Below, piece by piece: positions 4,789-6,387 of a DNA stretch of 64,000 bases (position 1 is the first letter of the stretch; the number at the start of each line of letters is the position of its first letter). The DNA is from an uncultured Thermococci archaeon. GTDB lineage: Archaea > Methanobacteriota_B > Thermococci > Methanofastidiosales > B48-G16. The DNA lies in the NCBI GenBank assembly GCA_964595645.1, contig CAZQQT010000003.1, forward strand, positions 96,001 through 160,000. Direction: 5' to 3'. The translations under genes and the position numbers were made by a program. Under the pieces are notes generated by a model that had not been told where the DNA came from, made no database searches, and saw only the letters and a program-made list of their open reading frames with translations.

Positions 4789-5052
4789 GTGTACTCGTAC
4801 TGGTACATCTACGGAGATATATAAACCCTGTGGTCTCCTCAATATATATTAGTTTAAATTAATAAAGTTATATATCCATACGCTTTAAATTGTGCAATAA
4901 CTTTTTGTAGTCTCATTTATGGTGATCGATTATTATACACAAAATAGTACCCTTTATTATAGATTTTTTTAAGAAATTCTTTTTTAATAAATCTTTTAAA
5001 TAAAATTCTTTTTTTAGAAATCTTTTTATAGACTTTTATTCATAAGATTTTT

Positions 5053-5883
5053 TTAAATAGCTTCTTTATTTAAGGGATGACTCTTTTTGTATGTACTTTC
5101 TTTATACTTGTTTGTTACGTGAGTATACTGCTGTGTAGTAGAGAGGTCGCTATGTCCAAGGAGATCTTTGATGACAACAATATCTGCATCATTTTGAAGT
5201 AGGTGAGTAGCAAAGGTGTGTCTCAGCGTATGGGGTGTGACGTCTTTCTCTATATTTGCCTTTTCAGCATATTTTTTTACGATACTTTGTACAGAACGCT
5301 GAGACATTCTTTCTCCATATTTATTTAGTATTAAGGCATTTTTTTCTTTTTTTCTTTCTTTTATGTATTTTTTCACTAATTTTTTTGTGTTTTCATCCAT
5401 AAATACAATTCTATCCTTTGATCCTTTCCCTAAATGTACAAAAACTTTTTCTTCTTCGATATCATTGACATTTAACTTACATAACTCGGAGACACGCAGT
5501 CCAGTAGCGTATAGAAGCTGTATTATCACTTTATCTCTCAAATTATCGGCGGCATTTAATAAAGCCTTTATCTCGCTACGATTTAGGAATACAGGAAGAG
5601 TCTTAGAGACCCGTGGAAGATCGATATCTTCAGCGATTTTCATGTTTTTTGTCTTATAAAAACATTTGATAGCACTTAAATATCTGTATAAGGTCTTTAA
5701 AGATAAATTTTTTTCCTTTTGGAGCTTGAACATGTATTTTTTTATTTCTTTAGCCTTTATTTTTTCATAAGGCTTGCCAATGTCTTCAAAAAAGTTTTTC
5801 AACGTATTTTTGTAGTTCCTTATTGTGTTATCAGAGTATCCTTTCAAGCTCATCTCCATCTCAAAGTCTTCTATCGCTTTCAT
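5053..5883 (-). CDS. xerA: Tyrosine recombinase XerA (XerC/D family)
   Basis: Intact catalytic set GLRVSE, GKGSK, HTLRH, LLGH and TQQY; likely start is ATG 5883 behind the SD-like GAAGGTG. Confidence 0.9.
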   Translation of the reverse strand: MKAIEDFEMEMSLKGYSDNTIRNYKNTLKNFFEDIGKPYEKIKAKEIKKYMFKLQKEKNLSLKTLYRYLSAIKCFYKTKNMKIAEDIDLPRVSKTLPVFLNRSEIKALLNAADNLRDKVIIQLLYATGLRVSELCKLNVNDIEEEKVFVHLGKGSKDRIVFMDENTKKLVKKYIKERKKEKNALILNKYGERMSQRSVQSIVKKYAEKANIEKDVTPHTLRHTFATHLLQNDADIVVIKDLLGHSDLSTTQQYTHVTNKYKESTYKKSHPLNKEAI

Positions 5884-5887
5884 TCTT

Positions 5888-5921
5888 ACACCTTCGTATA
5901 ACATACATTATACGAAGTTAC
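5888..5921. other. loxP-like / dif-like recombination site overlapping the xerA 5' region
   Basis: ACACCTTCGTATA-ACATACAT-TATACGAAGTTAC has inverted arms, 30/34 identity to loxP, and also reads as an 11-6-11 dif-like site. Confidence 0.8.
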
Positions 5922-5937
5922 TATTTAAAGGTTTCGG
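5922..5937 (-). promoter_or_regulatory. BRE/TATA promoter of xerA
   Basis: Minus strand CGAAACCTTTAAATA directly abuts the lox-like site. Confidence 0.7.
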
Positions 5938-5996: not shown

Positions 5997-6387
5997 AGAC
6001 AAAAATACTGTTTTTCACACTTTGGCGAAAAATAGATACTTAATCCGGTATACGGCGGCGAGGATTGTGTGATTGTGTAGGAAGAAACAGTTTATAAAAA
6101 ATTTTTTTAAAAAATCGAAAAAATTTAATTAAACTTCTAGAAAGAGTATATAAAATTTAGTTCTTTTTTATAGATTTAAACTATTAAGTTTAAATTAAAG
6201 ACTCTAATTTTTAAGATTCTATTTATTATATCTTTTATAATACATATATTTTTCAGCATAATAGTTTTGTTCTATTTTTGAGACTTCAAAAAATTTTTGC
6301 ACAATTTACAATGTTTCATTATTTAAGCATATATTTTTATCATCCGCGAACAGAAAATTTTTTATCTTTTGATAAGAAGTATTCACT

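Follow-up and report, generated by a model that had tools for sequence, protein, structure and literature searches.

A probable dif site with strong likeness to loxP in the xerA promoter of an uncultured Methanofastidiosales archaeon, and integration junctions at the same site in a sister genus

The window analysed here is a stretch of 64,000 nucleotides from the genome of an uncultured Methanofastidiosales archaeon (G000; 1.97 Mb in 14 contigs, 99.96% complete). It contains, on the minus strand, a xerA gene preceded by a predicted promoter and by a 28-bp palindromic site that can also be read as a 34-bp lox-like site. Blocks rich in A-tracts are found on both sides of the gene (Table 1).

Table 1. 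Features of the xerA locus; positions are those of the window.
Feature	Position	Strand	Basis or remark
xerA, 276 aa	5053..5883, ATG at 5883	-	NF040815; catalytic residues intact
28-bp dif-type site	5891..5918	-	layout, orthologue conservation, crossover point in sister genus
Promoter-side arm ACTTCGTATAA	5918-5908	-	part of 28-bp site
Spacer TGTATG	5907-5902	-	part of 28-bp site
Gene-side arm TTATACGAAGG	5901-5891	-	part of 28-bp site
Site as 34-bp lox-like 13-8-13	5888..5921	-	30/34 to loxP
SD-like GAAGGTG	5889..5895	-	overlaps outer end of gene-side arm
Predicted transcription start	near 5899, inside gene-side arm	-	inferred from canonical archaeal spacing
TATA-like TTTAAATA	5929-5922	-	predicted xerA promoter
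BRE-like CCGAAAC	5937-5931	-	predicted xerA promoter 5922..5937
A-tract-rich block upstream of promoter	6096..6295	.	densest 200-bp window in genome
A-tract array downstream of xerA	4843..5050	.	99.5th percentile; most tracts spaced 10-18 bp

The xerA product scores 289 bits with the XerA profile NF040815 (cut-off 220) and 115 bits, below the cut-off of 267, with the XerS profile NF003462. The catalytic residues are R130, H218, R221, H244 and Y253. The protein shares 38% identity with Thermococcales XerA, 30-32% with XerC/D and 16-18% with Cre, and its best match in the PDB is XerA of P. abyssi (4A8E, 3e-54), the value for Cre being 0.8. In a tree of 43 proteins, whose long branches make its deep parts unreliable and which was used for the grouping of XerA within the order and for its distance from Cre, it falls among the proteins of its family, within a well-supported clade formed by the XerAs of the order, and the XerA tree mostly follows the host families. 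XerA is a vertically inherited Xer. An alternative in-frame ATG inside the spacer (5904) would give a 283-aa ORF; this start, which precedes the predicted transcription start and is missing in most relatives, was set aside. G000 also encodes two longer tyrosine recombinases (open frames of ~410-420 aa), near which no palindrome comparable to the XerA site was found, and a search for a Cre homologue in G000 gave none.

The first-pass annotation of this DNA had described the site both as a near-perfect loxP and as an 11-6-11 dif-type site, and both descriptions were borne out. The identity to loxP, checked against the P1 record NC_005856, is indeed 30/34, with mismatches at positions 1, 21, 31 and 33; it rises to 26/28 over the core, and the 6-bp overlap is identical to that of loxP. 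The core has the inner ends TAA-N6-TTA, and its arms are symmetric at 10/11 positions; at the inner T of Xer sites, loxP has C. A loxP-like match was obtained in 0 of 100 shuffled versions of the window, and under an i.i.d. model a match of at least 30/34 is expected 2.6e-7 times per genome, which excludes chance. The statement that the window holds no second copy can be extended to the whole G000 assembly, since the genome scan that had been proposed found this single site, the next-best match to loxP having 11 mismatches. The site is also the most symmetric TAA-N6-TTA palindrome of the assembly. Two 126-kb Logan contigs (depth 35 and 66), possibly the source data, run across the locus with neither a difference nor a joint. 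The loxP and G000 sites are each identical to E. coli dif at 18/28 positions, and the spacer TGTATG is one change away from the E. coli dif spacer TGTATA. Another contig of the same samples, aligned to window 5892-5926, carries a site with four differences, possibly the dif of another organism or the attachment site of an element.

The dif-type site begins 3 nt past the TATA box, ahead of the xerA start codon. A TATA-like box is similarly placed, 0-3 nt ahead of the arm, in 7 genomes and in family loci. The annotation had also claimed that the site covers the expected transcription start, which holds for the start predicted by the BRE/TATA geometry, and that the deviations of the right arm create the SD. 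The gene-side arm indeed doubles as an SD in this family, with GGTGAT or GTGAT in relatives; family f4 has its SD outside the arm. Because the site follows the TATA box by 3 nt and overlies the predicted start, bound XerA could block initiation, and on balance we favour the view that XerA damps its own transcription.

Alignment of the xerA upstream regions of relatives, which had been suggested as a check, found the full site kept at the same position, 34-38 bp upstream of the xerA start, in six genomes from three families (G002, G003, G005, G007, G008, G011). The site is also present upstream of xerA in 19 further family loci. The arms are conserved or changed symmetrically (GTCG/CGAC in family f4, CGCA/TGCG in G007) and the spacers vary, with TATACA, TGTATA, GGTACA, GATACA and TAAACA among the 19 further loci. 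One relative has the spacer TGTACC, which is that of the T. kodakarensis dif, a site verified by ChIP (PMC11840125). Two pairs of close relatives (L204 and L207; L208 and L003) differ by an in-place inversion of the 6-bp spacer between matching flanks, for which Xer action and replication slippage at the hairpin are candidate causes. The sites of the relatives match loxP at 25-29/34 positions; with this range, and with a spacer one change from TGTATA, the 30/34 of G000 lies in the tail of the distribution seen in the family. The G000 site is thus single-copy, intergenic and conserved among relatives, except in genus g6 (three genomes, 84-91% complete), where no site was detected at xerA or by the patterns searched. 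The site was absent at xerA in four Thermococcales-type loci, and the patterns used did not find it in the incomplete genomes G001 and G017, a single G017 match having been discarded as no better than controls.

In Methanofastidiosa, full site and promoter arm are split. At the xerA promoter a single arm, TTATGCGCAAA, is 98.8% conserved in 15 genomes, compared with 60-89% for its flanks; it partly overlaps a BRE, which accounts for part of this conservation. The full site, with the spacer TATACA, is invariant and intergenic in 7 Methanofastidiosa genomes, and in the complete genome G006 it is separated from xerA by 68 kb and from the main cdc6 by 175 degrees. Being distant from the xerA promoter, it therefore persists without an operator role, as dif would. 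The promoter arm kept without its partner would fit an operator, as expected, and may thereby strengthen the case for autoregulation. We infer that the split supports both the dif and the operator roles.

Further sites and genes were observed in these genomes. G006 carries a degenerate second copy 284 bp ahead of its site (C1:1295588), two more XerA-like genes ~20 kb from xerA (C1 1383196-1385777), and a second cdc6-like gene at 1,408 kb. A second dif-like class, T[GT]CGCATAA-N6-TTATGCGAA followed by a conserved 30-bp right flank, occurs in Methanofastidiosa G009-G033 (loci L031, L035, L042-L054, L186, L188), at most five times per genome, with differing spacers and between accessory genes. 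The neighbours swap at the site, L031/L046 and L047/L051 matching on the left only and L046/L047/L050 on the right only. This class may be the archaeal equivalent of pdif-type gene modules.

Direct traces of recombination were found in a species of a sister genus, whose XerA is ~75% identical to that of G000 and whose site arms are identical. Five loci (L229, L230, L234, L236, L240) show the empty form, in which promoter, site and xerA follow each other. In two left junctions (L231, L233) the promoter, left arm and TATACA are followed by an altered right arm and foreign DNA, whereas in three right junctions (L206, L218, L219) foreign DNA and an altered left arm precede TATACA, the native right arm and xerA; the XerA protein of these three loci is the same as in the empty loci. 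The spacer is common to empty and junction forms and the switch of sequence falls inside the site. These junctions are the footprint of integration through crossover at the spacer, and the site, in the sister genus only, is thus seen to undergo site-specific recombination. The end of L237 falls exactly in the right arm. In G004 (L106:6300-6366), 22 extra bases separate the xerA promoter from a site whose two arms are both of the element type, possibly an integration remnant; the contig terminates just past that site.

The foreign flanks of L231 (1-318) and L233 (1-81) differ from each other, which suggests that the left junctions stem from more than one element. The flanks of L231 and L218 (1-243) both match a plasmid-like contig of 3.5 kb (L249), and jointly they rebuild an extended inverted repeat. 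A pME2001-type replication gene, present on L249, and a winged-helix-like gene are found in one element family. No recombinase gene was found on L249, which is incomplete, and in the search for a whole inserted element viral-contig scans and family genomes yielded nothing usable, this related 3.5-kb fragment being all that was recovered. The inserted elements may use the host XerA, a possibility to which we give somewhat less than even weight. Integration parts xerA from its TATA box and leaves the native promoter facing a short hydrophobic ORF.

The position of the site on the G000 chromosome was addressed by strand skew (GC, GTTG and fourfold-site), which was noisy across the 14 contigs and did not place it at a terminus. 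In G006, which has the second cdc6-like gene mentioned above, the skew was ambiguous for the terminus, and gene order between G000 and G006 is too scrambled for a position to be transferred. Archaeal dif sites usually lie opposite the origin, Sulfolobus being an exception, and the Sulfolobus dif is also outside fork-fusion zones (PMC3020120). The A-tract density of the upstream block is reached by 0.06% of random windows, and the block is kept in relatives (45-56, with medians of 13-15). The A-tract blocks around xerA and its site resemble the dif boundary described in PMC11840125, and both Smc and a TrmB-family gene are present in G000. By this resemblance, the upstream block might speculatively be part of a dif-associated chromosome boundary; A-tract enrichment was sought at the G006 site and not seen, so that the boundary idea is not general.

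The annotation had further proposed an evolutionary link to Cre/lox, or convergence on it. A GTDB-wide search for exact copies of the arms returned 32 stretches, most of them with a recombinase gene directly downstream. The owners include the Xer of CPR bacteria, XerA of Woesearchaeota and Methanosarcinales, Xer of Ruminococcaceae, recombinases of Planctomycetota and Chloroflexota, and Cre-like proteins of Pantoea, so that at least seven unrelated recombinase lineages are preceded by the same arms. One CPR site (L060:3181-3214) has the same spacer as G000 and matches loxP at 32/34 positions. R196 of XerA, in the helix-J motif SQRSVQ, is aligned with R259 of Cre, a known specificity residue (PMC10250229), and with the Arg of SARNVQ in XerC. 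Arg is found at this position in all the aligned recombinases bearing these arms, whereas XerD and Thermococcales XerA have other residues there and arms without CG. Since the arms are common to many recombinases with this Arg, and since loxP and the G000 site are equally distant from E. coli dif, the likeness to loxP would reflect a recognition code shared in the family and not a special link to Cre. The proposed link did not stand, as the XerA clade is far from Cre, the relatives are less similar to loxP, and the arms are widespread. Cre should nevertheless recombine the G000 site, as its mismatches (spacer position 8 and outer arm bases) are of the kind that Cre tolerates (PMC1479339, PMC2865440). 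The likeness to loxP is thus a curiosity of modest practical use that does not reveal the origin of Cre/lox.

Some of these loci deserve mention on their own. In Peregrinibacteria/Peribacteria (L060, L061, L063, L066, L076) the same arms stand ahead of an Xer gene, which makes this a candidate dif module with a single Xer in CPR bacteria. The arms are also carried by Pantoea contigs and a plasmid (L064, L068, L072, L074, L077, L083-L089), where seen ~154 bp ahead of a recombinase of 342-346 aa that is 42-43% identical to Cre. Two Marinifilum contigs, L065 (571 bp) and L075 (1,430 bp), carry symmetric lox-like sites (31/34) and look like synthetic contamination.

Taken together, these data make it highly probable that the G000 site is the chromosomal dif of its single XerA. 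That the site is the cognate dif-type site had been proposed in the first-pass annotation, and the proposal is supported by its single copy, its conservation with xerA and the junctions in the sister genus. One XerA monomer would bind each 11-bp arm, the two sites of a chromosome dimer would synapse, and strand cuts at the edges of the 6-bp spacer, with exchange via a Holliday junction, would yield monomers. These steps are borrowed by analogy from characterised XerA, a dimer-resolving enzyme that occupies each arm and makes its cuts in cis at the borders of the spacer (PMC2958812, PMC3646895). XerA bound between the TATA box and the start codon would also lower xerA transcription, and a live recombination site may double as a landing point for plasmid-like elements, as seen in the sister genus. 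The likeness to loxP would come from a widespread arm sequence together with a spacer close to the common dif spacer TGTATA.

Four other explanations were weighed. The site could be mainly an operator for XerA autorepression, the working dif being elsewhere or unassembled. Its exact placement between TATA box and start codon would suit such a role, as would the lone arm kept at the Methanofastidiosa promoter and the spacers that vary and invert among relatives. However, left and right junctions of inserted DNA lie inside the homologous site, the nearly complete G000 assembly has no better palindrome, and Methanofastidiosa retain the full site well away from any xerA promoter, and we regard an operator-only site as unlikely. 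It also seems quite unlikely that the site serves mainly as an attachment site for an element's integrase, or for another G000 recombinase, and not as a substrate of XerA. Integration junctions do exist in the sister genus, G000 has its two further recombinases, and the integrated elements are only partly assembled, which makes an integrase of their own conceivable; but the site tracks xerA at a fixed distance across three families, the other recombinases have no comparable palindrome nearby, and the related element contig carries no recombinase.

The remaining two explanations bear on the likeness to loxP itself. Descent from a P1-type Cre/loxP module, or convergence on it as a kind of mini-Cre, could draw on the high identity, the identical 6-bp overlap and the helix-J Arg. 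It is contradicted by the much greater identity of XerA to XerC/D and Thermococcales XerA than to Cre, by the PDB match, by the lower identities in relatives and by the still more loxP-like site of a CPR Xer among the unrelated lineages that share the arms; we hold this explanation to be very improbable, and the ancestry is largely refuted. Contamination by a vector loxP, or a chimeric assembly, would account for a high identity to a common vector element, and lox-like repeats do occur on the two tiny Marinifilum contigs. This can be practically dismissed, being refuted by conservation: many independent samples contain diverged orthologous sites with the same promoter setting, and the contigs are continuous across the site, in agreement with the annotation's view of the site as natural.

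Considering the probable dif together with the junctions, a broader scenario can be put forward tentatively, and we think it more doubtful than likely. Methanofastidiosales might carry integrase-less plasmids or viruses of the IMEX type, which would enter the dif of the xerA promoter via the host XerA; the promoter would be handed to the element and the excision enzyme retuned. Methanofastidiosa might have escaped by moving dif, keeping one arm as an operator and reusing dif-like sites for the shuffling of accessory genes. A likely dif is here named for the uncultured archaeal order Methanofastidiosales, for which the literature search found no dif site. With the two roles fused in one lineage and split in another, these archaea offer a natural test of the old idea that a dif within the promoter of its own recombinase serves autoregulation, and the junctions of the sister genus suggest that mobile elements enter an archaeal dif.

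The closest known systems are the XerA/dif systems of Pyrococcus abyssi, Thermococcus kodakarensis, Thermoplasma acidophilum and Sulfolobus solfataricus (PMC2958812, PMC3646895, PMC11840125, PMC3020120), which share the single XerA, the 11-6-11 layout, TAA-N6-TTA and the single copy. The G000 site is 18/28 identical to the dif of T. kodakarensis, and A-tract-rich surroundings are shared in the G000 family. In Thermococcales dif is far from xerA (PMC2958812), while the G000 site is inside the xerA promoter, is almost perfectly symmetric and has arms with CG. Dif-like sites have been reported upstream of the xerA operon in Haloferax and Halobacterium (PMC11840125), and predictions place such sites close to xerA in Sulfolobales (PMC2958812). 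Streptococci and lactococci, with XerS/difSL, likewise pair a single recombinase with a site immediately upstream, for which autoregulation or protection against insertion was proposed in 2007 (PMC1914069). However, XerS is longer and of another subfamily, and difSL is a 31-bp, asymmetric and FtsK-dependent site; as to protection, insertions do occur at the archaeal site. With Cre/loxP, G000 shares most of the 34-bp site, the 6-bp overlap, the location of the site upstream of the gene, the helix-J Arg and presumably a role in dimer resolution, whereas its protein is a distant, chromosomal, Xer-type recombinase of 276 aa, compared with 300-400 aa in the Cre clade, and its spacer is not conserved among relatives. 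Bacterial IMEX (integrative mobile elements exploiting Xer; PMC5357621) similarly combine foreign DNA at a dif-like site with hybrid junctions, and the literature search found no archaeal case by title or abstract; the archaeal insertions differ in being known from relatives and not from G000, in that the elements are incomplete, and in that use of XerA is hypothetical. Compared with these systems, the G000 site is of the already known XerA/dif kind, and the findings of value are the integration junctions and the Methanofastidiosa split.
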